NCBI GenBank assembly: GCA_002067205.1
Contig: MVQL01000164.1
Location: forward strand, 42,046 to 66,045
Length of the DNA: 24,000 bases
DNA from: Pelotomaculum sp. PtaB.Bin104
GTDB taxonomy: Bacteria > Bacillota > Desulfotomaculia > Desulfotomaculales > Pelotomaculaceae
Reading direction: 5' to 3'
A program made the position numbers and the translations under genes. The notes under the pieces are model-generated. The model was given only the letters and a program-made list of their open reading frames with translations, made no database searches and was not told the origin of the DNA. Numbering within the stretch: position 1 is the first letter of the stretch; every line of letters starts with the position of its first letter. Of this stretch, positions 4,868 through 24,000 are shown piece by piece.

Positions 4868-6208
4868 TTAGTTGTTATTTTCAGTTTCCTTAACGTTTTG
4901 ATTCGGCGATAGTGCTTCGGTTTGCCCTGTTGCTCTACCGGCGTCAATGAGTCCTACCCCCTGCACATCTGGCTCAAGGTTTTCCAGTGCTGTCGCGGTT
5001 TCTTTCAGCCGTTTTTTTACCTGGTCCGGTGTCAAGGAATTGTCAACCTGCAGCATCTGGGCCACCACACCAGAACATACAGGCGTGGCCATTGATGTGC
5101 CGGATAATGAAAAATACCAGCTACCAACCCGTGCATTTTTATTCTGCTTATCCAGTGTTGAGCCGGGCGAGCGCAGTGAGATAATATTAACACCCGGCGC
5201 CAGTATATCAGGTTTGGCCAGGCCGTCAATGGTTGGGCCCCTGCTGGAGAATTCGGCCACCAGGTCATCACCCGGGGCAGCAGTATTCCTGTCATCAAGG
5301 GCGCCCACGGTAATCACCAGCGGGTCAATGCCAGGAGAGCTGATGGTTTTTGCCCGCGGTCCCTCATTGCCCGCCGCTACACACACGACAATCCCGCTGG
5401 ACCAGGCTTTTTCCACCGCCTGACAGGCCGGGTCATTTTTGTAAGTCTCTGTGGCCGTACTGCCCAGGGACATGTTCAGCACCCTGATCCCCAGGGCATC
5501 TTTGTTGCCGATACACCACTGGATGCCTTCAATAACCGTTGACAGCCGACCCGAGCCCATTTTATCGAGCACCTTTACCCCAACCAAACCTGCTTCGTAG
5601 GCGGGACCAAGGTAACTGAAGCCGGATTGACTGCCGTTGGAGCCCACGTCTCCGGCCACGTGGGTACCGTGGCCGTTATCGTCGTAGGGAATGGTTTTTT
5701 GCTTAACAAAATCTTTGAACCCCACTATCCGCCCGGCCAGATCAGCGTGGTCATAAATCCCTGTGTCCAGAACTGCCACTACAACCCCTTTCCCGGTGAC
5801 ACCCAGGTCCCATAGCGGTGTGGACTTAACCACGGGGGCAGCAACGTCAAGCACTGCCTTAACCTCACGGTCATACCAAATTTTTTTGATTAACTTGTGC
5901 TGGGCCAGCAATTCCAGCTGCCTGGCGCTCACCTTTGTAGCAAATGAGTTAATTATCGGCAACTCCCTTTGCACAGGGCATTTAGCGTAATCTGCCAACT
6001 CTTTGAAAGGGCAATCACCTGCCCGGGTTTCCGCCGCCTGAACAATAACTGGTATTTTGCGCCAGCGCTGGATTAGGGATTTGAATGGCTTTTGCAAAAA
6101 GCAAGGCACATATTTCAGCGGCCGATACCACTTCAGGGCCGCCGTTTTTACCTGCGGGCAGAACTTGCCCACATTGGAGCGAATCCAGCTTACCTCATGG
6201 TATATCAT
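4868..6208 (-). CDS. aprX: subtilisin-family (S8) serine protease, AprX-like, no signal peptide
   Basis: Catalytic triad motifs VAVLDTGI (Asp), HGTHVAG (His) and GTSMATP (Ser). Start moved to MIYHEV.. (ATG 6208) with GGAGGG 7 nt upstream. The N-terminal WYRPLKYVPCFLQKPF and the ~446-aa length resemble my recollection of Bacillus AprX. No hydrophobic signal sequence. Confidence 0.85.
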   Translation of the reverse strand: MIYHEVSWIRSNVGKFCPQVKTAALKWYRPLKYVPCFLQKPFKSLIQRWRKIPVIVQAAETRAGDCPFKELADYAKCPVQRELPIINSFATKVSARQLELLAQHKLIKKIWYDREVKAVLDVAAPVVKSTPLWDLGVTGKGVVVAVLDTGIYDHADLAGRIVGFKDFVKQKTIPYDDNGHGTHVAGDVGSNGSQSGFSYLGPAYEAGLVGVKVLDKMGSGRLSTVIEGIQWCIGNKDALGIRVLNMSLGSTATETYKNDPACQAVEKAWSSGIVVCVAAGNEGPRAKTISSPGIDPLVITVGALDDRNTAAPGDDLVAEFSSRGPTIDGLAKPDILAPGVNIISLRSPGSTLDKQNKNARVGSWYFSLSGTSMATPVCSGVVAQMLQVDNSLTPDQVKKRLKETATALENLEPDVQGVGLIDAGRATGQTEALSPNQNVKETENNN

Positions 6209-6442
6209 AAAATTTCCCTCCAGTTCAAGGTGATCCACGCAATAAAAGGTCTGATATACCATGATATTAATTTGGCTTAAAATGGTTCTTCTGGTTAAAA
6301 CAAAAAAACTTGGAAGGACATCAGCAGAAAGACAGCCGTATAGCCTAAAACTTATTATTTACTTAAAAGGGTTTACATTAATGATTTAACCAATATAATT
6401 AATAGTAAAAAATATTCAGTTAATCAGTTTCTAATTTTAAAC

Positions 6443-6471
6443 GATCATTAGGTTGATTCAAGTCAGGAATT
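6443..6471 (+). promoter_or_regulatory. possible sigma-A-type promoter for the enoyl-CoA hydratase gene
   Basis: TTGATT (6443-6448), 17-nt spacer, TAATGT (6466-6471), ~44 nt upstream of the ATG. An alternative -10, GATAAT, has only a 15-nt spacer. Hexamer match only. Confidence 0.3.
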
Positions 6472-6514
6472 AAGATAATGTACATATATCCAAAAATTTT
6501 TCAGGAGGAGCAAT

Positions 6515-7297
6515 ATGATCAGTGAAGACAGCAAACCCGTGGGGTTAAAAATAATCGACAGCATAGCAATTATAACTATTGATAATCCACCGGTAAACGC
6601 CCTCAGCCTGGAAACACTGAATGGTATAGACCAGGCGCTGGACCAGGTCAGAGCGGAAACTGAGTTCAGGTCCCTGATCATTACCGGGGCCGGTGAAACC
6701 TTTGTAGCCGGATTGGACATCAAAATACTTATTGACCTGGATGAAGTAACCGGGCAAAATTTTTCGCGGCACGGTCAGGAGATCATGCAAAAAATCGCCG
6801 ATCTGCCTTTTCCAACTATCGCTGCCATTAACGGCACGGCGCTTGGCGGGGGCAGCGAGCTGGCCTTAGCCTGCAACATGCGGCTGGCCGATATTAATGC
6901 CCGCCTGGGATTTCCGGAAATTAACCTCGGAGTATTGCCTGGCTTTGGGGGTACACAGCGGTTTTCCCGCATGGTTCCTCTGGGTATTGTCTACGAAATG
7001 ATCTATACCGGGAAAATCATTACTGCTGAGGAAGCCTACCGGATCGGGATGGTCAACCGGGTAGTGCCGAGCGAACAAGTTTTAGAGGAAGCAATGAAGC
7101 TGGCAGAGCTAATCGTCTCCAAAAGGCACGTTGGCATCAGGGCGATTAAACAGGCGATTAACCGCGGCCTGCAGCTCTCCGTTCGTGACGGCATGGTTGT
7201 TGAAGCGGAGTTGCTCGGCAAACTATGTGAAGGCAACGAGGTTAAAGAAGGTGTGAAAGCTTTTTTTGAAAAGCGCCCGCCTGTTTTCAATGATTAA
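6515..7297 (+). CDS. enoyl-CoA hydratase/isomerase (crotonase) family protein
   Basis: AGGAGG RBS 6 nt upstream. Crotonase hallmarks: ITIDNPPVNAL, ITGAGETFVAGLDI, AAINGTALGGGSELALACNMRLA, EINLGVLPGFGGTQR, EGVKAFFEKRPPVF. Confidence 0.9.
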   Translation: MISEDSKPVGLKIIDSIAIITIDNPPVNALSLETLNGIDQALDQVRAETEFRSLIITGAGETFVAGLDIKILIDLDEVTGQNFSRHGQEIMQKIADLPFPTIAAINGTALGGGSELALACNMRLADINARLGFPEINLGVLPGFGGTQRFSRMVPLGIVYEMIYTGKIITAEEAYRIGMVNRVVPSEQVLEEAMKLAELIVSKRHVGIRAIKQAINRGLQLSVRDGMVVEAELLGKLCEGNEVKEGVKAFFEKRPPVFND

Positions 7298-7482
7298 GCT
7301 CCAGCCAACAATTATCTATGGCACAGCCTGCAATTGTGCTGCCTGGATTGGCACTGCCCTTTCCCTGGTGCTATTTTTTAAACCAACCATAAGGCTGTTG
7401 ATTTAGTAATTATGAAAAATTAAAGGCCTGGCAATAATTAACCCGGCCAGCTGAGAATTCTTTTACCGGTGGTAGTATAATT

Positions 7483-7962
7483 ATGAAATTTATCTGCCCG
7501 TTAATTGTTGTCAAGGACGTAGAGCAATCCAAGAATTTTTACGAAAATGTTCTCAAACAAAAGGTCAAGTTTGATTTTGGCGAGAATGTCCTCTTTGAAG
7601 GTGACTTTGCCATTCATTTGGCCAGTCATTATCAAAAACTTTTGGGCTGCGACAGCAAGCAAATTCTTAATAAATCCAATAACTTTGAATTATATTTTGA
7701 AGCAGACAATTTGGAAGAAATTTATACAAAGCTAAAAGGTGAGCACGTTGAATTCATCCATAAGGTCTTAGAGCAACCCTGGGGACAAAAGGTAATTCGT
7801 TTCTATGATTTGGACGCACATATAATTGAAATTGGCGAACCGATGCAAACTGTAGTACTCCGTCTTGCAAATACAGGGCTTTGTGTTAATGAAATATGTA
7901 CAAAGACCTCAATGCCGGCACACTTTGTAGAAAGCATATTAAACGCCGCTAAGCAAACGTAA
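7483..7962 (+). CDS. VOC (glyoxalase/bleomycin-resistance fold) family protein
   Basis: The N-terminus (PLIVVKDVEQSKNFYENVL) and the C-terminal WGQKVIRFYDLDAHIIEIGEP are typical of VOC-fold proteins. GGTGG lies 10 nt upstream of the ATG. Confidence 0.75.
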   Translation: MKFICPLIVVKDVEQSKNFYENVLKQKVKFDFGENVLFEGDFAIHLASHYQKLLGCDSKQILNKSNNFELYFEADNLEEIYTKLKGEHVEFIHKVLEQPWGQKVIRFYDLDAHIIEIGEPMQTVVLRLANTGLCVNEICTKTSMPAHFVESILNAAKQT

Positions 7963-7968
7963 ATGATA

Positions 7969-8544
7969 CTAATTCTTGACAAATACCAGTCCATACTGGC
8001 CTTGCCCGAAATCTATGCTATAGAACTCCTCCATGCCCCGCTTGAGCGCCAGATCCCTGACCTCCTCCGGTGAAAGCCTGTGCTCAATGGGCGGTCCTGG
8101 CGATCCGGCGATTTTCCGCCACTCGATAACGGCCATTCTGCCGCCGGCCCTCAAGATCCGGAGCGCCTCCGAAAAAAACAAATCGTGGTCATCTGTTTCA
8201 TGCAAGACATTGCTCATAATAATGAAGTCAACTGCCCGGTCAGCCAGCTTAAAGTCGTACTCGCCCACCTGAATTGTCCGGATATTGGTCAAGCCGGTTT
8301 CGGCCGCCCTGCCGGCGACTTCTGCCAGCATCTCCGGTAAAATGTCCAGAGCGTATACAATTGCGCTGCTACCCACTATTTTTCCGGCCGGGATTGTAAA
8401 ATACCCGATCCCGCAGCCGATATCGGCAACGTCGGCCCCACTGGCCAGACCGAATTTTTGTAGGGTTTCGTAAGGAGGCATCAGTGACCTTCTCTGCTCA
8501 TTATCCAGCTTATGCTTGCTTTTTGCAGTAAATTTATGCGCCAT
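7969..8544 (-). CDS. class I SAM-dependent methyltransferase
   Basis: SAM-binding motif I VADIGCGIGYFT, then VYALD and FIIMSNVLHE. Start moved to MAHKF.. (ATG 8544), with GGAGG 9 nt upstream. The ORF-track GTG at 8553 abuts the RBS. Convergent with the VOC gene; the stop codons are 6 nt apart. Confidence 0.85.
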   Translation of the reverse strand: MAHKFTAKSKHKLDNEQRRSLMPPYETLQKFGLASGADVADIGCGIGYFTIPAGKIVGSSAIVYALDILPEMLAEVAGRAAETGLTNIRTIQVGEYDFKLADRAVDFIIMSNVLHETDDHDLFFSEALRILRAGGRMAVIEWRKIAGSPGPPIEHRLSPEEVRDLALKRGMEEFYSIDFGQGQYGLVFVKN

Positions 8545-9052
8545 TTTATCCACCCTCCCAAAAGCTCAACAGAGACCTCAGGCTAAGCGTTTCCGGAATA
8601 TAAACAAGCCGTCCAGTTGAATGGGCGGCTTATAGAAAATAACAAGATATTAACAATAATTAATTCCCGCATTGCCGTTTTGCTTATCGTTTTTTAAAAC
8701 CAATTCTCAAAAATCGGCACCCGGCTAATCACATCTGCCTTCCTTTTAATTGAAAAGGCCTGGCATTTGGCAACTAGACCAAGGTTCCCTTGTCATAATT
8801 ATAGGTTTAAAAACTAACAAGGTATACTAACAAAGCAGGAATCTTTATTTCTGAAGCTTTATTGTATTATAGCACCCGGCTTAAGCTTATGCAAGTATCA
8901 CCCTGCCCACAGTGTGTGTTGATCACAAGGTACTTTAGCTCATGTCACAAGAACAAATACAGAGATACACAATCATTGTGGAATCTCAGCCTTGCTAGTA
9001 GCCGGCGCATGAATTCTTATGGTATTTATGTAAAATCTATTCACGTTTCCTG

Positions 9053-12934: not shown

Positions 12935-12988
12935 GAAAAAAATAATGTAATATTATTGAAAAAGCTTTATTAAACTTCATAAATAAAC

Positions 12989-13018
12989 AACCGGAGGCGG
13001 GCAAGCCCGCTTCCGGTT
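12989..13018 (-). terminator. strong GC-rich hairpin; likely terminator of the ECF-operon transcript
   Basis: AACCGGAGGCGGG-loop-CCCGCTTCCGGTT, a ~13-bp stem with one G-U pair. Followed by GTTTATTTAT on minus and GTTTGCCTTTT on plus. It is ~170 nt downstream of the stop at 13189. Confidence 0.65.
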
Positions 13019-13188
13019 GTTTGCCTTTTCCTTCAGGCTTAAGTTAGGCTGACTAACCACAACTTTTTATCTAAACCATACATGTGTAAGCCATCTGCTT
13101 GTAGAAAGTATATCGCTTCAAGATGGGGAGAAAAGGTCATTATTTTCTTCGTAATTTTTACTAAAACCTTTTTTGTATTACGTGTAGA

Positions 13189-14097
13189 CTATTTCTTTCT
13201 CTTCTTAATAAATAATTCTACCCCAATCCAGCCCACAATCAGTATTCCGGCAATAATAGTCAAATAATTAGTCCAGAAAAAACCGCTTTGCGGACTAGCA
13301 GAGGCCGCGGATTCTTCTTTTTTTTCTGCAGAAGCAGCTGCCTGGTCAGTATCGGAGCTGCCAACCGCCTGCTGCCCGGCAGCATCGGTGGACTGCTGCT
13401 CTTCTGTATTCCCCGCAGATTCGGTACTGCCGCCTATACTTCCAGCACTGTCACTGGCGCCTGGTTGTACAGTTGCGACGACCGAAGCCTGATCAGCGTT
13501 GCCACCCTCACGGGATGAATCTGCCGGAGCCTGGCTTTCATCATGTGTCACCGGCGCAGGATCCTGCCCGGTAGCTTGCGCGGCTCCCTCGGTTTTAAAA
13601 GTTATGGTGATCTCTTGCCCTGCACTGGTGCCGCCAAGGGTAGATACCCCATTCTTAGCTTTCAGATCTGGAGAAATCTTTAAAGTATAAGACGTCCCCG
13701 GCTTGAGCGGAGCAGCAGGCTGAACAAATATGTGGTGACGGTTACTGAAATCGATGGTATCATCGATCTTGGTTACGGTTAAAGGTACACTCTCATTCCC
13801 CTGATCGAACAGGCTAAAACACTTGCGGTTAATTCCCCAAATCGTACTGTTGACCACGTTTTTATCGAATATCAGCTTAAATTTCGGCTCACCTGCTGGA
13901 ATGTTAACTGCATTCGACACATTCTTCCCGCTGTCCATTAAGCTTATGGATACAAAACTGAGGGGTTTCTGTCCGGGTATGCCTGAAGAGTCCGCATTTT
14001 CCCCACCCTGGGCTAAAGCAACCGGGGTAACCAGCAACATAGACAGGATTACAACGCACCAAAATAAAATGAACTTTAATTTACTGGAAAACGACAA
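13189..14097 (-). CDS. cell-surface protein: signal peptide, Ig-like (SbsA/Big_5-type) domain, acidic low-complexity linker, C-terminal TM anchor
   Basis: TTG start with AAGGGTG 7 nt upstream. Signal peptide KLKFILFWCVVILSMLLVTPVALA/QG. Beta-rich domain ending in PLKPGTSYTLKISPDLKAKNG. About 110 aa of S/A/Q/D/E-rich linker. C-terminal helix IIAGILIVGWIGVELFI followed by KKRKK. Confidence 0.8.
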   Translation of the reverse strand: MSFSSKLKFILFWCVVILSMLLVTPVALAQGGENADSSGIPGQKPLSFVSISLMDSGKNVSNAVNIPAGEPKFKLIFDKNVVNSTIWGINRKCFSLFDQGNESVPLTVTKIDDTIDFSNRHHIFVQPAAPLKPGTSYTLKISPDLKAKNGVSTLGGTSAGQEITITFKTEGAAQATGQDPAPVTHDESQAPADSSREGGNADQASVVATVQPGASDSAGSIGGSTESAGNTEEQQSTDAAGQQAVGSSDTDQAAASAEKKEESAASASPQSGFFWTNYLTIIAGILIVGWIGVELFIKKRKK

Positions 14098-14240: not shown

Positions 14241-15056
14241 CTAGATCAGGATAAACGACAGAGTAAAGGCAGACAGTATGAACGCTATCGACAGCCTATC
14301 TGCCAGCCTGTACTGAAGTCTGCTTAGTCTGGTCCTGTTCATACCCCCCGTATAGCATCTACTTTCCATAGCTATGGCAAGGTCGTTGGCCCGCTGCAGC
14401 GAAGCCGCCAATAACGGGATCAAAACCGCAGTAAAGCTTCGTAACCGGGTAATCACCTTGGGTGAGTTAAACTGGGCGCCGCGTGATCGCTGAGCCCTGG
14501 TCAGGGTTTCCGCCTCTTCAATGATAGTCGGGATAAAGCGCAGCGAGGTGCTAATCAGCATGGAAAGCTGGTGCACCGGAATCCTGGCATAGCGCAAGGG
14601 CGAAAGCAAAGACTCGATCCCTGAGGCCAGTCTCAGCGGAGAAGTAGTGGTGGTCAGTAAAATCGAGCTCATATACAGGATCATCAGGCGAAAGACAGTA
14701 GAAAGCCCCAAATTGACCCCTTCTCTGGTTATCTTAAAAACCCCTAGTTGAAATAACAGCTCACCCGTAGTTAGGGTAGCCTGAAAAATAAAGGACAGCA
14801 GTAAAATATACCTGAGCTTGCGCAGGCCGCGCAATATCTTTGCCGCTTTCACTCCTGAGAAATAGAAAGCGGCGGAGAGAATAGTTACATTTAAACAGAT
14901 CACATACCACTGGAAATTAATTAAGACGGAAAAAATAATTAATAGACAGCCGATGATTTTGGTCCTGGGATCGAGCCGGTGAATAATCGAGTTACCGAGG
15001 ACAAATTGTCCCATTTTCAAGCCCTGATCCTGATTTTTTCTCATTTTTCTTCTCAT
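14241..15056 (-). CDS. ecfT: ECF transporter transmembrane (T) component
   Basis: IHRLDPRTKI near the N-terminus and the two Arg-containing coupling helices (SPLRLASGIESLL..., ...AQRSRGA) are typical of EcfT/CbiQ. ATGA overlap with the upstream ATPase gene. An internal start at MGQFVLG is possible. Confidence 0.9.
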   Translation of the reverse strand: MRRKMRKNQDQGLKMGQFVLGNSIIHRLDPRTKIIGCLLIIFSVLINFQWYVICLNVTILSAAFYFSGVKAAKILRGLRKLRYILLLSFIFQATLTTGELLFQLGVFKITREGVNLGLSTVFRLMILYMSSILLTTTTSPLRLASGIESLLSPLRYARIPVHQLSMLISTSLRFIPTIIEEAETLTRAQRSRGAQFNSPKVITRLRSFTAVLIPLLAASLQRANDLAIAMESRCYTGGMNRTRLSRLQYRLADRLSIAFILSAFTLSFILI

Positions 15057-15901
15057 TCCAGCAGCCTCCTGATCTCCCGTTCAGCTTCAGCCAAAGTAAC
15101 AACTCCAGTGTTGACTTTTTGCCCTCGCGCTGCTAGATCATACATCAGTTGCAGGTAGTCGGGCAGCAGAATGTCGGGCAGTTCCCGAAAATCTTTGCGG
15201 GACAAAATTTCTTTCGGGGTCCCGGCAGCCACCAGAGACCCTCCGTCCAAGACCGCCATCCGCCCGGTTAGGTTGATAATATCCCTGATACTATGTGAGA
15301 TCATGATCACCGTTACACCATATTCCTGCTGCAACCTTTGGAGCAACTGCAAAATCATGTCCCGCCCCGCGGGATCGAGTCCGGCTGCCGGTTCGTCCAG
15401 TACCAGGATTTCCGGTCGGATTGCCAGAACCCCGGCGATGGCGACACGCCGGCGCAGTCCACCGCTCAGGCAAATTGGCGGCTGCGCCGCTACTTCGTCA
15501 GGCTCAAGACCGACAAGCCGCAAGGCCTCAATTACCCGCTTTTCGATTTCCTGTTTATCCAAGCCGAGATTTCTGGGGCCATAGGAGACATCTTCAAAGA
15601 CGGTGCTTTCAAAAAGCTGCTGCTCCGGATACTGAAAGACCATGCCCACTTTCTTCCAAAGGGTGCGGGCATATTGCTCGTCCATAGTATCTTTACCGCC
15701 GACCAACACCTGTCCTTCCCCTGGCGTGAGAAGGCCGTTAAATTGCTGCACCAGGGTCGTCTTGCCGGAGCCGTTCGCCCCCACGATGCCAAAAAAATCA
15801 CCTTTCTGTACGGAAAGGTTGATGCCGTTTAGGGCCTTTTTCTCATAGGGGGTACCCGGGTTGTAAGTATAGCTTAGATTTTTCACTTCTATGATTGACA
15901 T
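15053..15901 (-). CDS. ecfA2: ECF transporter ATPase component (second of pair)
   Basis: Walker A GANGSGKTT, signature LSGGLRRRVAIAG, Walker B ILVLDEPAAGLD, H-loop ISHS. The start overlaps the ecfA1 stop by 13 nt. Confidence 0.9.
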   Translation of the reverse strand: MSIIEVKNLSYTYNPGTPYEKKALNGINLSVQKGDFFGIVGANGSGKTTLVQQFNGLLTPGEGQVLVGGKDTMDEQYARTLWKKVGMVFQYPEQQLFESTVFEDVSYGPRNLGLDKQEIEKRVIEALRLVGLEPDEVAAQPPICLSGGLRRRVAIAGVLAIRPEILVLDEPAAGLDPAGRDMILQLLQRLQQEYGVTVIMISHSIRDIINLTGRMAVLDGGSLVAAGTPKEILSRKDFRELPDILLPDYLQLMYDLAARGQKVNTGVVTLAEAEREIRRLLE

Positions 15902-16743
15902 AAGTATTCCACCATTTTTGGCACAGTGATGATATTTCGGTCAATCTGGAAGCCGCTTCTTCTTAAATTTTCCGCAAGTTGCACGATTTCGGGAGGCCTT
16001 AAGCCGGCTGCGGCCAATTGTTCCGATGCTGTAAAAACCTCCGCGGGCGTACCGGTCATGTAAATACCCCCCTGGTGCAGCACTACTATTCGGTCAGCTC
16101 CGACAACATCCTCCATATTATGAGAAATTAATATCACAGTAATGTTGTACTCTTGATTGAGAGCAGTCAAAATTTCACCCAACTCACGCCTGCCCCTAGG
16201 GTCAAGCATGGAGGTCGGCTCATCCAGAACCAGGTGAGACGGGCGCATGGCTAGTGCGCAGGCAATGGCCACTTTTTGTTTCTGGCCGCCGGAAAGCATA
16301 TGTGGCGCGTGCTGGCGCAGTTCCGTCAGCCCGACCGCCTGCAGGGACCATTCGACACGCTCGCTGATTTCCGCGCGGGAAAGCCCCAGGTTCTCAGGCC
16401 CAAAAGCGATATCCTCCTCCACTATGGAGCTGATAATCTGATTGTCGGGATTTTGAAACACCATCCCCACCTGGCGTCTGATCTCGATTAGAGACCTGCT
16501 AGCGGCAGTGTCAAGGCCGTTAACATAGACCTTGCCCGCCGTCGGCTTAATTAGGCCGTTGACCAGCCTGGCCAGGGTTGATTTTCCCGAACCGTTCATT
16601 CCTAAAAGGCCGACAAATTCCCCCTGTCTGACCGTCAAGCTGACGTCGTTGAGGGCAATTTTACTTAAAGGTTGTCCCACATTAAATTCCTTGGTAACAT
16701 TGACCAGCTCAATGCTGCCTTCAAACATAAGGGTTGTGTCCAC
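15889..16743 (-). CDS. ecfA1: ECF transporter ATPase component (first of pair)
   Basis: Walker A GMNGSGKST, Q-loop, signature LSGGQKQKVAIACAL, Walker B HLVLDEPTSMLD, H-loop ISHN. Start uncertain: GTG at 16743 abuts the GGGAG, and the alternative ATG at 16728 gives MFEGSIELVNV. Confidence 0.9.
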   Translation of the reverse strand: MDTTLMFEGSIELVNVTKEFNVGQPLSKIALNDVSLTVRQGEFVGLLGMNGSGKSTLARLVNGLIKPTAGKVYVNGLDTAASRSLIEIRRQVGMVFQNPDNQIISSIVEEDIAFGPENLGLSRAEISERVEWSLQAVGLTELRQHAPHMLSGGQKQKVAIACALAMRPSHLVLDEPTSMLDPRGRRELGEILTALNQEYNITVILISHNMEDVVGADRIVVLHQGGIYMTGTPAEVFTASEQLAAAGLRPPEIVQLAENLRRSGFQIDRNIITVPKMVEYLCQS

Positions 16744-16804: not shown

Positions 16805-17398
16805 TCACTCCCAATTGGTCAGCCTTGGCTTGAGCCGCTTAATCAAAATAGCGGCGATAATCCCCCCGGCAGCGCCGAACACAGTATGGGTCAGTGAGGA
16901 AAAACCCAGGCCCAGCGCGATAAACCCCGTCGGGAGCTTAAGCAGTACTGCCAGGGCGAGGTTAACCACCAGCTTGGCCAAACTGGTCAGGGTACCGCAG
17001 ATAGCTCCAACAAACGGGTTCTCGAGACGGTAGTTGAAAAATGGTGCGATCAGGTCAAGCAGCAGACCCGGTATAAAGTACTTAAAAAAAACAAAAACGC
17101 CTTCTTTGCCCAGGCCCAGCAGTACAGCCAGCGCTCCCGATATAATACCCATGATCATGCCGGCCCCAAACTTGGGAATCAGACCTTTGCCCAGGACCAG
17201 GATGCCCATCCAGTAAATGCTCGAATGGCCGGGCACGTGCAAGGGCAACCGGGTTATATCCTTGGTGATGGCTATCAGTGTGCCAAACATGGTCAACCTG
17301 AGGACATCGGCCAGGCCTAGCTTAAAGATGAACCGTTCGGATACCGGTATATGATCATTTTCCCGCTTACCTTTGGTTCCGATTAACTCTTCCTGCAC
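16805..17398 (-). CDS. polytopic membrane protein; candidate substrate-capture (S) component of the adjacent ECF module
   Basis: About 200 aa with ~5-6 Gly-rich TM helices, a size and position (immediately upstream of ecfA1A2T) typical of group-I S components. I do not recognise the S-component family, so the specificity is unknown. Start placed at GTG 17398, with GGAG 8 nt upstream; the ORF-track start at 17407 abuts the RBS. Confidence 0.6.
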   Translation of the reverse strand: MQEELIGTKGKRENDHIPVSERFIFKLGLADVLRLTMFGTLIAITKDITRLPLHVPGHSSIYWMGILVLGKGLIPKFGAGMIMGIISGALAVLLGLGKEGVFVFFKYFIPGLLLDLIAPFFNYRLENPFVGAICGTLTSLAKLVVNLALAVLLKLPTGFIALGLGFSSLTHTVFGAAGGIIAAILIKRLKPRLTNWE

Positions 17399-17521
17399 CT
17401 CATCCACTCCAGTTATGACTTCAATTGTTATAATGTATTGACTTCACTAAGATCATTCACCGGGGAACGCTGCTATTTTCTTTGAATCAAGTGACTGTTA
17501 ACATGTTTACTGTGCATATCA

Positions 17522-17959
17522 TCAGTCGATTATGTTGATTTCACTGACATCCTCCACCAGAAAATGCCGGTAGTCCCTTTTTGTACAGAGGCCAACGGTA
17601 CCGCGATCAGTAAGGCACAGAATATAGTCCTCATTGATTTCATCTCTGTGGGCCTGGAAAGACGATCCGCCGTTTAGACCGATGACTTTCGCATTTTTAA
17701 ATTCACCTATCCCCGCTGCGCCCATCACATACAGGAGGCTAGGTCCCCTAGCCTCCTCGTCGTTAGGGAATTCTTGTTCCATTAAAGCTTTCATCACATC
17801 GGTACCCATAAGGGCAACCAAGTTGTTGTTGTCCAGCATCCGGATTACTGTGCCTGAATGCAAGCTCCGCTCCTTTGATATGTTCTCGAATATAAAAGAA
17901 CCTGCTACCAGCAATAAGATGATCATACCGCTCAATATGATTTTTTTATTCAAAGACAT
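17522..17959 (-). CDS. membrane-anchored protein of unknown function (N-terminal signal-anchor, ~115-aa extracytoplasmic domain)
   Basis: Start placed at MSLNKKIILSGMIILLLVAGSFIF (ATG 17959), with GGGTGA 8 nt upstream. The ORF-track GTG at 17971 has no RBS. No family recognised. Confidence 0.65.
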   Translation of the reverse strand: MSLNKKIILSGMIILLLVAGSFIFENISKERSLHSGTVIRMLDNNNLVALMGTDVMKALMEQEFPNDEEARGPSLLYVMGAAGIGEFKNAKVIGLNGGSSFQAHRDEINEDYILCLTDRGTVGLCTKRDYRHFLVEDVSEINIID

Positions 17960-18025
17960 CGCTTTAATCACCCGATATTTATGAACTATTACTCATAATT
18001 TAATGCCACATAACTCCAGCCAAAA

Positions 18026-18778
18026 TTAATATCCCTTCAACTGTTGCTTGGTGAGTGTCTGCCAGGTTGCACCGCAAGCGTCCCCGGCCACAATTGGAGC
18101 TACCAGCAAAACATACTTACCGTCCATCATAACCGGCTTTACCATATCCCCAAGACGCACAAGTTCATCATCCGCCAGCAAGGCCCCATCCGGGCTCTTA
18201 ACCATGGCAATATTGGTCTGAGACCGAATGCTTCCAACATCGGCTACACCATTTGCGCTTTTTAATTTAAGCTTACCCCTCAAGCGGCCGTCATTACCGC
18301 TTAAACGCAAACCCACCCCGGCCAGTGCACCGATAATCCCCTGACCGGTGCCGCCATGTTCGGAAAGGTGCACACCCAGCTGCTGCGCCAGGCTATACGC
18401 CTCCTGCTTGGTGATCACAACCTCCTTGGCTTTACGGCCAAAAGCAATAAGCAGATCAGGCTGGCTAAGCCGGTCCGGAACCGCGATACACAGGCCTGGA
18501 TCAGACCCAGACGCACTTTCTTTAATTATATACTCGGTAGCATAACTTGTTAAAGAATCTAGGTCAGTATCATTTACTTCTGCGACAAAACACATCGAGC
18601 TGTTATGCGAGGTGTACGGGACATCCGGATGTATCAACAACTGGTGCCGGGTCACACCGTAACTCTTGCCCCAGCCTTGCTCTTCCATAGTCTCTGATAT
18701 TGAGTAAACCAGTTCACCGGTACCCCACGCACTATCAATTCTGTCAGTATCATCAGCACATAATAAAACCCGTATCAA
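18026..18778 (-). CDS. stand-alone TiaS-kinase-domain (TCKD)-like protein (hypothesis); otherwise conserved hypothetical
   Basis: The ORF track gives 18026..18814 (ATG, no RBS). TTG at 18778 has GGGAGG 9 nt upstream and yields (M)IRVLLCADDTDR.. Ordered motifs: DDTD, HPDVPYTSHNSSMCFVAEV, SDPGLCIAV, HGGTGQGIIGALAGVGLRL. From memory these match the TiaS N-terminal domain. No OB-fold or Zn-ribbon region is present. Confidence 0.7.
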   Translation of the reverse strand: MIRVLLCADDTDRIDSAWGTGELVYSISETMEEQGWGKSYGVTRHQLLIHPDVPYTSHNSSMCFVAEVNDTDLDSLTSYATEYIIKESASGSDPGLCIAVPDRLSQPDLLIAFGRKAKEVVITKQEAYSLAQQLGVHLSEHGGTGQGIIGALAGVGLRLSGNDGRLRGKLKLKSANGVADVGSIRSQTNIAMVKSPDGALLADDELVRLGDMVKPVMMDGKYVLLVAPIVAGDACGATWQTLTKQQLKGY

Positions 18779-18845
18779 TTCTTTTAACCTCCCTAGGTCA
18801 TTTTTATTCTGCATAATACAATTTTTGTTGGCTCTTTTTTACCTA

Positions 18846-19097
18846 TTAACTGACTGGAAAACCTTTATAACAACTGAATCCAGAGCGTGCCCACCGCCTG
18901 AATCGACAGTTGTAACAGGTCAACGCATCTTCAAGGAAAGACTCCTCCTCTACATCATCTTGATAAACCGGACAGGCTTTGGCAAGAATCTCAGCGGCAC
19001 TGAGGTCATCCCTAACATTGCTGTCCCCGGTAAAATATTTAGTACCATCCTTTTCCCTAATATATTTTGATAAAACATCTCTGACGGAATTGTCCAT
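18846..19097 (-). CDS. small acidic protein with four Cys (C42, C61-x2-C64, C76); possible metal or Fe-S binding
   Basis: ATG preceded by GGGGGAG with a 7-nt spacer. 83 aa. The stop is 31 nt before the ORF-track start of the TiaS-like gene. No family recognised. Confidence 0.65.
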   Translation of the reverse strand: MDNSVRDVLSKYIREKDGTKYFTGDSNVRDDLSAAEILAKACPVYQDDVEEESFLEDALTCYNCRFRRWARSGFSCYKGFPVS

Positions 19098-19266: not shown

Positions 19267-21270
19267 TTATATGCTTGTGCTAATTTCCAATATCTCTGAG
19301 ATATCCATTACTTTTATGTTTTTTTCATGTGCATCTACCGGTGTGTCTTTAGCGAAGGCCGTCAGACAATACGGGCAAGCCGTACAGACCACCTCCGCTC
19401 CACTTGCGGCGGCTTCAACAATACGGTTATTAGTGATTTGGTTGTTTGTTTTAACCTTGGTCCAAGCCCGGCCCCCCCCGGCGCCGCAACAAAAAGAACT
19501 GTTTCTGGAGCGGGCCATTTCGATCAGCCGGACGCTGGGAATGGCCGTTAAAACTTCCCTGGGCTCGTTAAAGGTTTCATTGTAGCGGCCAAGATAACAG
19601 GGATCATGGTAGGTGATGGTTTTATCAAGGTTTTTAACAGGCCTTAGTCTCCCCTTTTTCAATAGTTCGGCCAGAAAGACAGAGTGGTGATTGACATTGT
19701 ATGCTGCGCCAAACTGGGGATACTCATTATTCAAGGTATTGAAACAATGCGGACAGGCAGTTATGATTTTTTTGACCCCCTTATTGTTCCAGGCAGATAT
19801 GTTATTCTGAACAATTTTTTGGTAAAGTCGTTCATCCCCCATTCGGCGTGCTGCTTCCCCACAACACCACTGGTCATTTCCCAAAACAGCAAAATCAACT
19901 CCGGCCCTCTTAAGAACCTCGATCATGGCTTTGGTGGTTTTCCTGGCCTGCTCGTCAAATAAACCGGCACAGCCAACAAAATAAAAATATTCTGCGCTTG
20001 GGTGATTATCCAGGGTCGGCACCTCTAATTTCCTGATCCAATCATAAGCGGCATCAGGGTCTAAACCCCAGGGGTTGCCTTGATGTTCTATACCGGTACA
20101 CACCTTCCTCACTTCTTCTGGAACGTTCTGCTGTGCAGATATAATGTAACGGCGCATTTCGAATAGTCTGGCTGTGTGCTCGATAGAAATCGGGCAGATT
20201 TCCACGCATGCCCCGCAGGTGGTACAGTTCCAGATAAACTCGTCTTCAAAAACATCTCCAGTGATGTTTTTCTTTAGTACTTTCCGCTCTGTTTCAGTAG
20301 CTTTTTTGTATCGCGAAGCTTGCGGTAACGCACTGTACTTCATTAGAACAGGCGCCTTTTGGTCTATATGCTTGCGCAGGCGCCCGTTGAACCGCTTTGG
20401 TTTATGCTGTTCACCGCTCTGGTGAGAGGGACAATGTTCATCACAGCGGCCGCATTTGACACAGGCATAGGCGTCAAACAATTGCTTCCAGGTAAAGTCC
20501 TCCAAATTATTGGCTCCAATAGAAACCTCTTCCCCATCCAATTCAATCTTCCTGATCGCTCCTTTTGGCTCGAGCTTATGCCAGTAGGTATTAAAGGGAG
20601 CAAAAACCAGGTGCAGGTGCTTGGAGCGCGGTATGATAAAGAATAAAGCAAACACAGCCAAAAAGTGCGACCAAAAGAAAATGGTGCCCACTCTTTCCAT
20701 GCTGTTTCTATCCATGTTACCTAACCAGCCGGCAATAGCGGCCGCTAAAGGGGCAAACCCGGCCGGGACGTCGTTTTCGCCCAGGGCGATTTGGACCCCG
20801 TGAAACGAAGCCTCAGAAATGATAATGATTAGGATTAACAAAATAATTACGAATGCGATCGGAGTGTTTTTAAGCCACTGTGGCTTAAAAATTGTTCTGC
20901 GCAGAAGTAAACCAACACACGCAACTATGATAAAAATAGCAAATACATCTTTTATCAACAGGTAAACCAGATTATCGCCAATATAGGGAATTCTGGTAGA
21001 AAACAGGCCTTCCGCAACCATGTTCACCATGCCTGCCAGCAGAAACAAAAACCCCCATAGGATAAACCAGTGTAAAACCCCAAAGAGAGGCTTTTGCATT
21101 ATTCTCTTATGGCACAACAACTGGGAGAAAAAATAAATTAGCCGCCTGCCGGGATGGTCTGAACGATCTTCCGGCCTGCCCAGCTTGGTGTAAAGGTAGC
21201 GCCTGTAAACCTCGTAGAAGAAAAACCCTCCGGAAATAATTAATAGGGCAAAAAAAATAATTGCTTCCAT
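19267..21270 (-). CDS. membrane-bound Fe-S oxidoreductase: N-terminal multi-TM (NarI/DsrM-like) domain fused to an HdrD/DsrK-like module with 2x[4Fe-4S] motifs and two CCG domains
   Basis: Start moved to MEAIIFFALL.. (ATG 21270), with GGAGG 8 nt upstream. About 6 TM helices. Ferredoxin motifs CVKCGRCDEHCP and CTTCGACVEICP. Cys-rich CCG-type repeats: VGCAG...WCCGEA...CPHC, then HDPCYLGR...FCCGAGGG...CPYC. Confidence 0.9.
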   Translation of the reverse strand: MEAIIFFALLIISGGFFFYEVYRRYLYTKLGRPEDRSDHPGRRLIYFFSQLLCHKRIMQKPLFGVLHWFILWGFLFLLAGMVNMVAEGLFSTRIPYIGDNLVYLLIKDVFAIFIIVACVGLLLRRTIFKPQWLKNTPIAFVIILLILIIIISEASFHGVQIALGENDVPAGFAPLAAAIAGWLGNMDRNSMERVGTIFFWSHFLAVFALFFIIPRSKHLHLVFAPFNTYWHKLEPKGAIRKIELDGEEVSIGANNLEDFTWKQLFDAYACVKCGRCDEHCPSHQSGEQHKPKRFNGRLRKHIDQKAPVLMKYSALPQASRYKKATETERKVLKKNITGDVFEDEFIWNCTTCGACVEICPISIEHTARLFEMRRYIISAQQNVPEEVRKVCTGIEHQGNPWGLDPDAAYDWIRKLEVPTLDNHPSAEYFYFVGCAGLFDEQARKTTKAMIEVLKRAGVDFAVLGNDQWCCGEAARRMGDERLYQKIVQNNISAWNNKGVKKIITACPHCFNTLNNEYPQFGAAYNVNHHSVFLAELLKKGRLRPVKNLDKTITYHDPCYLGRYNETFNEPREVLTAIPSVRLIEMARSRNSSFCCGAGGGRAWTKVKTNNQITNNRIVEAAASGAEVVCTACPYCLTAFAKDTPVDAHEKNIKVMDISEILEISTSI

Positions 21271-21392
21271 ATTGCCTGCCTCCTGCATATCCAACGAAAA
21301 CACCTGGGGAATATATCCGTTGTTCATCCGGTCACATCAACTCTATCTGAGATCTAGCGTTATTTTCGTAAAAACAAGTCTTAAAATATAAT

Positions 21393-21429
21393 TGCCGGGC
21401 CATCTTTGCGAAAAACAAAGCTGGCCCGG
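21393..21429. other. long near-perfect hairpin upstream of the Fe-S oxidoreductase gene
   Basis: GCCGGGCCA-t-CTTTG-CGAAAAA-CAAAG-c-TGGCCCGGC: 14 bp with one internal mismatch. On the minus strand it is followed by AATTATATTTT, which is only moderately U-rich. It could be a terminator insulating the operon from the AT-rich island, or a protein or RNA structural site. Confidence 0.5.
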
Positions 21430-22434
21430 CATAGCCTTCAAGCCCAGCTCTCCTTTTCGTAATGGAAGGCACACTTGTTTCCCGGTGTACCCTGTCGTCC
21501 AACAACCATAGCGATATGCTTTAGGTAAGTTTGGATCGGAGAGATAATTTGTATCTTATTCGTATTTTTTTCGACTATCATAGAGCAAATTCCTGCAATA
21601 AAATCTTGGAAACTTAAAAATATTACTTTTGTGTAAACTGCATGCCGAAATGTTTGATAATTAAAAACACTATTAACAACTAAAATAACCATTATTTACT
21701 TAGAGGTGATATCCAACATTAGTAGAACCATTTTTAGCAACAAAGGAGGTGTATTGGAAGCCGGTGATGCGGCCGGTAACTGGAGCACCAACGGTCCATG
21801 TAAAACCGTGATCACACCGTTTAAAAAATCATACATGCAATTTTATCAATTCAAATACTGGGAAAGACCCTTGCGTTTTATTGACATTTTGTTCAAATAG
21901 AAAAGCTGAATTACATCTTTGTGCGATCACCTAAATTGATCTAACAGATCGCGATGAATTAGATAGACTTATGCATAATAAGCTCACATTTATATATATA
22001 TGCTCCCATTAAGGTAGACAGTTAATATAAAAAACTGTGTGCCGAAAGGGGAGCATTTTCTATGCCACAAAAGAGTAAAGTACTATTCATAAAAATATAT
22101 AAAACCTATTCATAATTGTTTTTTAATTTATCAACTGCTCTTTTTAACTTATGATGAAATTACGGTTAAGGATAGTTACACTGAATTGGGATATGCCAAA
22201 ATCGAGTTATTGCTCAAAAAGCTCGAAGGTGGAAGGTTGGAAAATAAGGTTGGGCTACTCAGTGAGTTCCTCCATTTCAGAATAATGCGATATTCCTGAG
22301 GTTTGAAACGAATCGTGTCATTCATATGGACTGGTAAAATTCGCAAAAGATTACTTGTAACATAGGTAAACTAGTAAGAAAATCAGACCTCAAAACCTGT
22401 CACCTTTTCGGTGGTTTTTTTTGTCTATTTTGTA

Positions 22435-22462: not shown

Positions 22463-22502
22463 CTTGTGAATTGCTTCTAAATCTTTAAGGAGGATGTCGT
22501 TT

Positions 22503-23009
22503 GTGAAAGAGAAATTTTGTATTGACATTTTAAAATGCATTAAATCTGGAGTAGAGGATATTGAAGCCAAACTGGATGACCCGAAAACCGGGTTGGCAGA
22601 AATCAAGCAGGAGATCAAGGATATCGAAAAAAGACTGGATAAGATGGACGACAAGAAAGACGATAAAAAGGACGAAAATATCATGTGGGTGCTTAAAGGT
22701 AAGAAAAAGAGATTCACTGTCCCCTGTGTTGGTAACGTAACGATAATTACGGAATTTCAATATGTATTTGTAGGACGGCTTGTACCAGATAAAGACGACT
22801 GCTGTGACCACGACGGGCGTAAGGAATTAGATGATTTCATCACCCTAACACTAACAGCTCCCCTTTTAGCTGTATCAGGAAACGGCGAAGCTATATTAGA
22901 ACAACCATATTATGTGGAAGGCGACACAGTGCTCATTAATATCGATCAAATTAATACTATCGGCCCCGCAAATCCTCCTTTCACGGCAATGTCATTAACT
23001 ATAAGCTAG
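22503..23009 (+). CDS. unknown-family protein, paralog 1: charged coiled-coil N-terminal module plus a ~85-aa C-terminal domain shared with the next gene
   Basis: The ORF-track ATG at 22494 lies 1 nt after AAGGAGG. The in-frame GTG at 22503 is 10 nt after it and is preferred. N-terminal part: EDIEAKLDDPKTGLAEIKQEIKDIEKRLDKMDDKKDDKKDE. C-terminal domain: CVGNVTIITEF..GRL...LTLTAPLL...YYVEGDTVLINIDQINTIGPAN. Confidence 0.8.
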   Translation: MKEKFCIDILKCIKSGVEDIEAKLDDPKTGLAEIKQEIKDIEKRLDKMDDKKDDKKDENIMWVLKGKKKRFTVPCVGNVTIITEFQYVFVGRLVPDKDDCCDHDGRKELDDFITLTLTAPLLAVSGNGEAILEQPYYVEGDTVLINIDQINTIGPANPPFTAMSLTIS

Positions 23010-23163: not shown

Positions 23164-23433
23164 ATGTTTGATTTTAATGAAATCTGTGTTGGAAACGTAA
23201 CGGTGCTCATGGCAAATCAGCTAGTATTAACTGGACGTATTTCGAGGCATCCTGTGAAAGTTGATGATGAGGACTTTTTCGTCCTAACACTAACTGCACC
23301 CCTCTTAATAGAACCAGGTAATAAGGGTCCTGCACCAGAACTGCCATTTTATGTAGTAGGGGACACAGTTAAAATTAATGAAGATAATGTTATTAGTATC
23401 GGCCCCGCGAACATAACTAACGGCGGCGTCTAA
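23164..23433 (+). CDS. unknown-family protein, paralog 2 (C-terminal domain only)
   Basis: ATG with GAAGGAG 10 nt upstream. 89 aa. Hand alignment to paralog 1 gives 38 identical of 76 aligned residues (CVGNVT, GR, LTLTAPLL, GDTV.IN, IGPAN) with one 7-residue gap. A hairpin terminator follows. Confidence 0.8.
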   Translation: MFDFNEICVGNVTVLMANQLVLTGRISRHPVKVDDEDFFVLTLTAPLLIEPGNKGPAPELPFYVVGDTVKINEDNVISIGPANITNGGV

Positions 23434-23755: not shown

Positions 23756-24000
23756 TTACTTCAACGCATTAACAATGACAGTGACTGCCTCCGCCCTGGT
23801 GGCACTGCCCCGGGGCAGGAACGTGTTGTCAGGATACCCCTTCATTAACCCGTTCTTGACCGCAGTGGATATGAACTCTTCGGCCCAATCAGAGATACTG
23901 CCGTTATCCGCAAAATGGGCTTCTCCCGCAGACGGCGAGAGCTTGGCAGCCCTGACGATCATTACCGCCATTTGCTCGCGGGTGATCAAGTAATCCGGCC
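23756..24000 (-). CDS. SLH (S-layer homology) domain protein, C-terminal end only (5' part lies beyond the window)
   Basis: The frame is open to the window edge (..PDYLITREQMAVMIVRA..). SLH pattern: ITREQ.A.M.VRA...F.D...IS.WA...V..AV..GLMKGYPDNTFLPRG.ATRAEA. The ORF-track start at 23989 is only the first alternative start codon inside a longer frame. Confidence 0.85.
   Translation of the reverse strand, partial: PDYLITREQMAVMIVRAAKLSPSAGEAHFADNGSISDWAEEFISTAVKNGLMKGYPDNTFLPRGSATRAEAVTVIVNALK

Follow-up and report, generated by a model that had tools for sequence, protein, structure and literature searches.

A bacterial TiaS-kinase-like protein and its four-cysteine partner in an operon headed by a Moco/Tuco riboswitch

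The 24,000-nucleotide stretch of contig MVQL01000164.1 from Pelotomaculum sp. PtaB.Bin104 that is analysed here (the window) carries on its minus strand a nine-gene operon, running from 21553 to 12984 with a riboswitch at its head, and the third gene of this operon encodes a 250-residue protein related to the kinase domain (TCKD) of the archaeal tRNA enzyme TiaS. To our knowledge only one reaction, the formation of agmatidine on archaeal tRNA, has been associated with the TCKD fold to date. The first ~160 residues of the bacterial protein, which we call TCKD-like, are a true homologue of the TiaS domain; the closest relative of the protein is the TiaS TCKD by fold, and the C-terminal half of methanogenesis marker protein 11 (Mmp11) by sequence score. 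The protein is predicted to work with a small four-cysteine (Cys4) protein, encoded beside it or fused to it, and the neighbourhoods of its relatives have tungsten and molybdenum as their theme throughout, which considerably narrows the 'small molecule' that the initial annotation of this gene had proposed as the substrate. From these sequence relationships we consider it likely that the TCKD-like protein is a tungsten-cofactor-linked, ATP-dependent processing protein that does not act on tRNA.

A TiaS-type kinase domain in a bacterial protein

A phmmer search of all PDB chain sequences with the window protein returns TiaS entries only (3au7, 3amt and 4rvz, with E-values from 3e-5 to 6e-5), and the alignment, of query residues 14–172 with TiaS residues 21–174, corresponds to the TCKD. 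The NCBIfam TiaS model NF040849 is matched at E 7.6e-7 and 28 bits, with residues 59–171 aligned to positions 42–154 of its 422, and a family profile built from 26 members finds the TiaS proteins of P. furiosus (3u02, E 5e-9) and A. fulgidus (E 1e-6) in the PDB through positions 1–160 only. An AlphaFold2 model built on an alignment of 91 homologues (pLDDT 92.9, pTM 0.89) gives nine significant matches when compared with the PDB by Foldseek, every one of them a TiaS, with E-values down to 1e-10 and superpositions with a root-mean-square deviation of 2.1–2.7 Å over about 160 columns at 28–29% identity; the next matches are generic ferredoxin-like proteins (S6, PII and HPPK) at E 1e-3 or worse. 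The resemblance to the TiaS kinase noted in the initial annotation is thus borne out by the PDB phmmer search, the NCBIfam model, the family profile and the fold comparison. That annotation was to be abandoned if similarity were lacking at the profile or fold level, if another characterised family claimed the protein, or if its motifs varied among homologues, and none of these is what we find.

The longest open reading frame (ORF) at the locus extends from 18026 to 18814 on the minus strand and encodes 262 residues when counted from its ATG. However, a GGGAGG ribosome-binding site lies 9 nt upstream of a TTG at 18778, 12 codons downstream of the ATG, no site of this type precedes the ATG, and the homologues are 247–250 residues long and cover 95% of the 262-residue frame. 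We therefore place the gene at 18026–18778 (minus strand) with the TTG start and a product of 250 residues, as the initial annotation had it; the four motifs quoted there are likewise all found in the translation. In the AlphaFold model the protein consists of the N-terminal TiaS-type kinase domain (residues ~1–165) and a C-terminal beta-rich domain (~170–250) of about 80 extra residues. One other TCKD-like protein (P0189) has an N-terminal extension of about 200 residues (1–200) with no Pfam match.

The DDTD and G-x-[IV]-G-A-L-A-G motifs are invariant or nearly so in alignments of 24, 91 and 127 homologues, and among the 127 representatives, taken at 50% identity, the same holds for D9, D10, T11, D12, T20, G21, R44, H45 and Q46, for Y55, T56, S57, H58, N59, S60 and G95, and for G147, G150, A151, L152, A153, G161, D163 and G164. 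The DDTD of the TCKD-like protein pairs with D8–D11 of TiaS, and the predicted Mg/ATP motif appears intact. TiaS autophosphorylates Thr18, a reaction for which the TCKD domain is named; T20 of the window protein pairs with Thr18 in the profile alignment, or with Thr19 in the pairwise phmmer alignment, and the threonine aligned to Thr18 is 94% conserved in the family. We also considered a catalytic cysteine pair, an idea that is weakened by the conservation of C63 (83%) and C97 (77%) in the 127 representatives.

Comparison with the available TiaS structures (PDB 3AMT, 3AMU, 3AU7, 4RVZ, 5XOB and 3U02) shows a common TCKD fold in the N-terminal ~160 residues, together with the DDTD motif, a threonine at or next to Thr18, a P-Y-x-T/S loop, an xxPG strand and a G-x-I-G-A-L-A motif. 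Because the fold and these motifs are common to the two proteins, ATP-dependent activation of an oxygen is a reasonable working model for the TCKD-like protein. There are clear differences, however: the family-specific RHQ and YTSHNS stand where TiaS has RLIRL and YKTRGNG, the TCKD-like protein is bacterial and has a different C-terminal beta domain, with no detectable FLD, OB fold or zinc ribbon, a Cys4 module with one CxxC accompanies it, either separate or fused, and its genomic context is tungsten/molybdenum transport, whereas that of TiaS is translation.

Taken as a whole, the protein does not qualify as a TiaS. Its 28 bits with NF040849 compare with a cut-off of 600 for that model, neither sequence profiles nor Foldseek give a match to the TiaS FLD or OB fold, and past residue ~160 there is no match to TiaS by profile or fold, even in a natural fusion with the Cys4 module. 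The profile and fold searches therefore agree with the initial annotation that no OB fold or tRNA-binding part is visible. Its further statement that no zinc ribbon is visible is correct for the 250-residue protein, from which the C-terminal zinc ribbon of TiaS is absent, but it overlooked the Cys4 mini-protein encoded upstream and fused to many homologues. An equivalence of the Cys4 module with the TiaS zinc ribbon was considered and is unsupported by profile or fold searches. No tRNA genes lie within the window, and in bacteria the equivalent tRNA modification is made by TilS (PMC11938285). Some members of the family carry the automatic UniRef name 'tRNA(Ile2) 2-agmatinylcytidine synthetase', while their NCBI name is hypothetical protein; the former is very probably wrong for the bacterial TCKD-like proteins.

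The best-scoring named family is Mmp11 (TIGR03280), with an E-value of 5e-12 and 45.5 bits against a cut-off of 255.8, in an alignment of residues 13–169 of the 262-residue ORF with positions 132–282 of the 292-position model. The N-terminal ~130 residues of Mmp11 have no counterpart in the window protein, and Mmp11 is defined as methanogen-specific and of unknown function, whereas the window protein is bacterial. Since the C-terminal half of Mmp11 matches the window protein, it too bears a TCKD-like domain outside a tRNA enzyme; we found no paper on Mmp11 in the literature searched.

A four-cysteine partner, separate or fused

Immediately upstream of the TCKD-like gene, at 18846–19097 on the minus strand, lies a gene for an 83-residue protein (p83) with four cysteines in the motif C..[FY]..D[DV]E[DE]E...C.NC.[FY]RRW..[GS]F.C. 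It has no match in Pfam (at E up to 10) or NCBIfam, and its residues 29–80 align with residues 251–302 of a fusion protein (P0076) at 46% identity (E 2e-15). In such fusions, which are 290–316 residues long and occur for example in Anaerovorax, Ihubacter and Eubacterium, the Cys4 module forms the C-terminus of the TCKD-like protein, and all four cysteines are invariant in each of the 105 fused proteins aligned. Two representatives have an additional fusion to a GlpA-like FAD oxidoreductase with a BFD [2Fe-2S] domain. A scan of reading frames in 73 loci located a separate Cys4 gene adjoining the TCKD-like gene in at least 42 of them, downstream in 39 and upstream in three including the window. 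The recurrence of the pair in both arrangements suggests that the TCKD-like protein works with the Cys4 protein.

In three loci from Syntrophomonas and Syntrophomonadaceae (L030, L037 and L038, at about 6200–8770), three tandem TCKD-like paralogues with 36–48% identity to the window protein are followed by one Cys4 gene. A triple P3-less riboswitch has been described before a seven-gene operon of Syntrophomonas wolfei that includes genes of unknown function (PMC2408646), and the tandem loci may be this same system.

A tungsten and molybdenum neighbourhood

The operon in the window begins with a Moco/Tuco (molybdenum/tungsten cofactor) riboswitch aptamer (RF01055) at 21434–21553 on the minus strand, which scores 62.4 bits in Rfam against a gathering score of 36. 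The match is full-length (model positions 1–135) with helices P1, P2 and P4 present, and the model positions of helix P3 (~60–74) are deleted. Aptamers of this P3-less type have been proposed to sense the tungsten cofactor (PMC2408646), a proposal that has since been reaffirmed (PMC11725836). A putative expression platform lies between the aptamer and the first gene (21383–21430, minus strand) and consists of a hairpin, GCCGGGCCA...TGGCCCGGC, with a T-rich tail; it was read from the sequence, and a simple terminator scan made no call there.

We have examined the neighbourhoods of the relatives of this gene in a set of loci obtained by scanning the genomes of GTDB species, which yielded 80 loci, and by context look-ups, which added more; the neighbour counts given here are over 85 sources. 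Relatives of the protein are numerous: among 8,000 candidates scored, at least 5,997 clusters (90% identity) match with E-values up to 1e-3. With a profile of the fusion and E up to 1e-10 the number of such clusters is at least 7,461, and when representatives at 50% identity are counted, 351 match with E<1e-30. From seven copies of the riboswitch we built a covariance model, which gives the window aptamer 116 bits and finds 59 copies in 33 of the 85 sources. Of the 57 loci whose upstream sequence extends for 4.5 kb or more, 27 have a copy there on the same strand. L001 and loci of the Geobacter type have it directly before the TCKD-like/Cys4 pair, at a distance of 30–520 nt. Every copy is 117–123 nt long, which is consistent with the P3-less form; the P3 alignment was inspected for the window copy only.

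The neighbours of the TCKD-like gene include a variety of importers. A MolA-like binding protein is encoded in 45 of the sources, immediately upstream of the TCKD-like gene, and a FecCD permease in 42; energy-coupling factor (ECF) components are less frequent, with an S component in 13 and EcfT in 12, and TupA is found in 13. The binding protein of one locus (L081) matches 4ovk at E 4.6e-31 and HI_1472/MolA (3psa/3psh) at E 4.5e-30, compared with E ~5e-4 for ferrichrome binders. A kinase-family neighbour proves to be the beta subunit of molybdenum storage protein, MosB (E 3e-72 to 2ogx_B), and this molybdenum/tungsten storage protein is present in 14 of the 85. Other neighbours with a place in metal transport or cofactor synthesis and use are MOT1, MoeA, MOSC and XdhC (six sources each), MoaA, MoaC and MoaE (five each) and AOR (three), and an HdrD-like gene occurs in five. 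The importers beside the family are therefore interchangeable, the MolA-like type II ATP-binding cassette (ABC) transporter being the commonest, ECF one of several, and TupABC a further one. The ECF module noted in the initial annotation is only one importer type among those used.

Individual loci illustrate what is constant. In a Geobacteraceae locus (L085) containing four riboswitches, genes for MoaA, MOSC, Fe-ADH, AOR, MoaD, MoeB and IclR are followed by the TCKD-like and Cys4 genes, and then by genes for a porin, MoaE, TupABC, MoeA, MoaC and MogA/MoaB. Clostridium polyendosporum (L032) has the ECF layout of the window, with GlpA-like and Pyr_redox_2/DUF1667 genes in place of the HdrD-like gene. 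The shortest arrangement, in L002, has a riboswitch followed only by the HdrD-like, Cys4 and TCKD-like genes, and then by unrelated genes. Because of these gene sets, with importers of varying type, we regard the TCKD-like and Cys4 genes, often with a redox partner, as the constant unit. Synteny with tungsten/molybdenum genes and the riboswitch is kept across Bacillota and Desulfobacterota.

Three further loci have features of their own. In a Eubacterium sp. (L086, 1080–11142), genes for Radical_SAM, Big_5, GlpA-like DAO+BFD and Pyr_redox_2+DUF1667 proteins precede genes for FecCD, an ABC protein and a binding protein, after which come a TCKD::Cys4 fusion and two short genes of the chromate-transporter family; no riboswitch reaches the Rfam gathering score within 9 kb upstream. 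This operon may correspond to a 'fetABC' operon of Eubacterium limosum that was read as an iron transporter (PMC11725836). In L001 (3078–4650) a MobB-like gene and an APH/RIO-like kinase gene lie between the ECF module and MosB. The Ihubacter locus (L087, 758–17385) has a riboswitch of P3-less length, four large Big_2/LRR surface proteins, a TCKD::Cys4 fusion and a FecCD-ABC-binding protein set, and ends with MoxR, DUF58 and transglutaminase genes; its surface apparatus is unusually elaborate for a trace-metal system.

Other genes of the operon and the window

The gene order behind the riboswitch is HdrD-like, Cys4, TCKD-like, p149, S component, EcfA1, EcfA2, EcfT and Big_5. The first gene (19267–21327, minus strand, as for all genes of the operon) encodes a membrane-anchored HdrD/GlpC-like iron-sulfur protein (Pfam CCG at 1.4e-39, Fer4_8 and a weak match to Nitrate_red_gam), with two CCG domains, a 4Fe-4S dicluster and a NarI-like N-terminus; the NCBIfam GlpC and TfrB models are matched below their cut-offs. 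We regard it as a candidate redox partner.

The gene following the TCKD-like gene (17522–17971) encodes a 149-residue protein (p149) that, judging its topology by eye, has an N-terminal membrane anchor. It has no match in Pfam (at E up to 10) or NCBIfam, and homologues are encoded at the equivalent position in L032 (38%) and L025 (24%); it probably has an extracytoplasmic domain and acts as an accessory to the ECF module. That module consists of an S component (16805–17407; a weak match to PF09819 at 30.5 bits against a cut-off of 25.2, and no match in a PDB sequence search), EcfA1 (15889–16743; TIGR04520 at 355.5 bits against 315), EcfA2 (15053–15901; TIGR04521 at 338 bits against 330) and EcfT of the CbiQ family (14241–15056; PF02361, E 9.5e-38 and 130 bits). 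All four components pass their NCBIfam or Pfam cut-offs, in agreement with the ECF operon described in the initial annotation, and they are encoded together, as in a Group I (dedicated) ECF transporter.

The last gene (13189–14097) encodes a secreted Ig-like protein of the Big_5 family (PF13205, 28.7 bits) with a C-terminal membrane anchor, a candidate surface receptor; 32 of 73 loci have homologues, mostly encoded by the first gene of a transporter operon. An intrinsic terminator with an 18-bp stem and a T-rich tail (12984–13023, minus strand) closes the operon, and neither a terminator scan nor reading of the sequence found a strong terminator between the riboswitch and 12984.

Elsewhere in the window there is a 6S RNA (SsrS) at 8660–8844 on the minus strand (RF00013, 65.7 bits against a gathering score of 46.4). 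Two plus-strand ORFs, at 22494–23009 and 23164–23433, are paralogues with 47% identity over 83 residues (E 2e-20) and the motifs CVGNVT...LTLTAPLL...PYYVxGDTVxIN...IGPAN, to which no family was assigned. An ORF at 23756–23989 on the minus strand resembles, by eye, an S-layer-homology (SLH) repeat region; SLH and Big_5 surface proteins also flank TCKD-like operons in L001, L002, L083 and others.

A predicted role in tungsten handling

Because the tRNA-binding parts are undetected in the protein, and because its conserved neighbours are transporters and include no translation genes, a role on cargo delivered by a transporter is a better reading than a role on tRNA, as the initial annotation had also preferred. 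We propose the following scheme. When the tungsten cofactor is low, the operon would be switched on through the riboswitch, and the importer would bring in tungsten (or molybdenum), as tungstate or in chelated form. After import, the TCKD-like enzyme would process this cargo in the cytoplasm by phosphorylating one of its oxygens with ATP, much as the C2 oxygen of cytidine is activated by TiaS; the target could be a tungsten-oxo or hydroxo group or a ligand hydroxyl, and the phosphorylated oxygen would be the leaving group. Thiol ligands would then receive the metal, first those of the Cys4 partner and in the end those of the pterin dithiolene, with HdrD-like or GlpA/B-like redox partners keeping the thiol carrier reduced and supplying or removing electrons. 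We think that the scheme taken as a whole, in which imported tungsten is processed in the cytoplasm at the expense of ATP, has about an even chance of being correct; in the specific chemistry of oxygen activation and hand-over, which we derive by analogy, we have little confidence.

A number of observations weigh against this scheme. The substrate of the ECF transporter is suggested by the riboswitch and neighbours only, and that of the MolA-like importer is likewise putative. Among the 57 loci with long upstream sequence (4.5 kb or more), the covariance model detects no riboswitch in about half. The window protein has no match to the Pfam model of the domain, TiaS_TCKD (PF22641), in hmmscan even at E up to 10; this model does have precomputed matches on several close homologues, a faint one in L085, and the structural superposition supports the domain assignment. 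The common cysteines C63 and C97 are not invariant, with the 83% and 77% conservation noted above, and the Cys4 tail is modelled with moderate confidence in the fusion (pLDDT 55–78). We know of no recognised gap in the biosynthesis of the molybdenum and tungsten cofactors that requires such an enzyme. The initial annotation knew of no characterised bacterial system of this kind, and we too found no published characterisation of the family in the literature searched. Finally, the authors who described the related Eubacterium limosum operons read them as iron transporters (PMC11725836).

We have weighed several other explanations. The first, which we judge unlikely, is that the protein is a pterin-salvage kinase: the ECF or type II ABC importer would bring in a dephosphorylated pyranopterin or a precursor related to the molybdenum or tungsten cofactor, the TCKD-like enzyme would re-phosphorylate it, and the GlpA/B/C-like partners would set the oxidation level of its glycerol-phosphate-like side chain. 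Vitamins and cofactors are the usual cargo of ECF and BtuCD-like importers, a transporter and a kinase are often found together in salvage operons, and a cofactor-sensing riboswitch would be expected to regulate precursor salvage too; moreover, anaerobic glycerol-3-phosphate dehydrogenase has three subunits to which the redox partners are similar, and several loci have TupABC in addition to an ECF or MolA-like importer, which suggests different cargoes. HPPK is a pterin pyrophosphokinase that also leaves AMP, and a weak Foldseek likeness to it recurs in two independent models (E 2e-3 to 2e-2), but this is at the level of the generic ferredoxin-like fold and is not significant. Furthermore, the binding protein is nearest to the oxyanion binder MolA, metal-handling neighbours (MosB, MOT1 and TupA) are more frequent than pterin enzymes, and we know of no bacterial uptake of molybdenum cofactor precursors.

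The kinship of the importers with the FecCD/Peripla_BP_2 family raises a second explanation, that they, or the ECF importers, bring in an iron complex in co-regulation with iron-rich tungstoenzymes, and that the TCKD-like protein and reductases release the iron. FAD and Fe-S reductases are typical of iron release from siderophores, TonB-dependent receptors are encoded in nine loci, and in L086 the TCKD::Cys4 fusion directly follows the FecCD-ABC-binding protein genes. The Tuco-riboswitch-associated 'fetABC1/2' operons of Eubacterium limosum were read as iron transport systems, and there is more cellular iron on lactate (PMC11725836). However, the pair also occurs without FecCD, either behind its own riboswitch in Tup/Moa/Moe/AOR clusters or with an HdrD-like gene alone (L002), the binding protein resembles MolA far more than it does siderophore binders, and the co-location of MosB, MOT1 and TupA points to tungsten and molybdenum; no Fur-type iron regulation turned up, although no search was aimed at it. 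We regard this explanation as rather unlikely, somewhat more so than salvage. Uptake of haem or cobalamin, an idea prompted by the FecCD/Peripla_BP_2, Shr-like and PF09819 matches, was dropped because there is no cobalamin riboswitch, a Moco/Tuco riboswitch was found, and the binding protein matches MolA.

It is improbable, in our estimation, that the TCKD-like protein is a regulatory switch that autophosphorylates its conserved threonine in response to ATP and metal, and so controls either the importer or the passage of the metal to storage or cofactor synthesis. The precedent of TiaS Thr18, with the high conservation of the aligned threonine, and the association of the gene with several unrelated importer types would fit such a switch, but a substrate site is what the strictly conserved RHQ/YTSHNS pocket and the obligatory Cys4 partner suggest, and none of the proteins inspected is fused to a transporter ATPase or a DNA-binding domain. 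Least probable of all is a genuine bacterial tRNA or RNA cytidine modifier of the TiaS type, split into kinase and zinc-ribbon proteins with an incidental place in the operon, which has in its favour the TCKD homology with intact catalytic motifs, the UniRef name and, in principle, the Cys4 partner as a zinc-ribbon counterpart, but against it the low whole-protein TiaS score, the end of all TiaS similarity at residue ~160 in the fused form too, the lack of a tRNA gene in the window, the use of TilS by bacteria (PMC11938285) and the conserved synteny with tungsten/molybdenum genes and the riboswitch.

Relation to known systems and significance

The tungsten-handling scheme has points of contact with three known systems. 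In Eubacterium limosum, P3-less RNAs stand in front of WOR1, tupABC, two FecCD-type 'fetABC' operons and focA; under tungsten limitation, expression of fetABC1 and focA rises (PMC11725836). The same kind of aptamer heads the window operon, and related loci, like fetABC1/2, have FecCD-type importers behind it, but the published descriptions of this regulon mention no TCKD-like protein, Cys4 partner or ECF-type importer. MolBC-A of Haemophilus influenzae (HI1470/71-HI1472) is a type II ABC importer of molybdate and tungstate whose MolA is homologous to the binding proteins associated with the family; the window has an ECF module in place of a MolA-type importer, and we know of no TCKD-like partner of MolBC-A. 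MosAB, which deposits polyoxometalate in an ATP-dependent manner, is a precedent for ATP-driven handling of molybdate and tungstate, and its MosB has homologues beside the TCKD-like gene as noted above, but it has an unrelated fold, of the amino-acid kinase family, and forms a storage cage, in contrast to a small two-domain protein with a Cys4 partner.

Going further, we may speculate that the TCKD-like enzyme and its Cys4 partner constitute an unrecognised ATP-dependent step of tungsten assimilation, in which phosphorylation of an oxo or hydroxo oxygen of imported tungstate or of a tungsten chelate drives an exchange of ligands for thiols that delivers tungsten selectively to the pterin pathway, that the ECF transporter of the window, with its two extracytoplasmic helper proteins, is the first tungsten importer of the ECF type, and that Mmp11 is the archaeal counterpart; we put this extended proposal forward as a doubtful one.

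The TCKD-like family appears to be a functionally new form of a fold that was known from one tRNA enzyme only, embedded in a tungsten-cofactor regulon, with a chemistry that we infer from its relatives and neighbours. A large bacterial family would thus have kept the ATP site, lost the tRNA-binding domains, gained a Cys4 partner and joined the regulon of the tungsten-cofactor riboswitch. This bears on how the 'iron-type' ABC transporters under control of the Tuco riboswitch are to be read, and it suggests a new class of substrate for ECF importers. The capture of tungsten, its discrimination from molybdenum and its delivery to the pterin are poorly understood in syntrophs, metal and sulfate reducers, degraders of aromatic compounds and gut Eubacteria, and the TCKD-like/Cys4 pair is a concrete candidate for a missing step.

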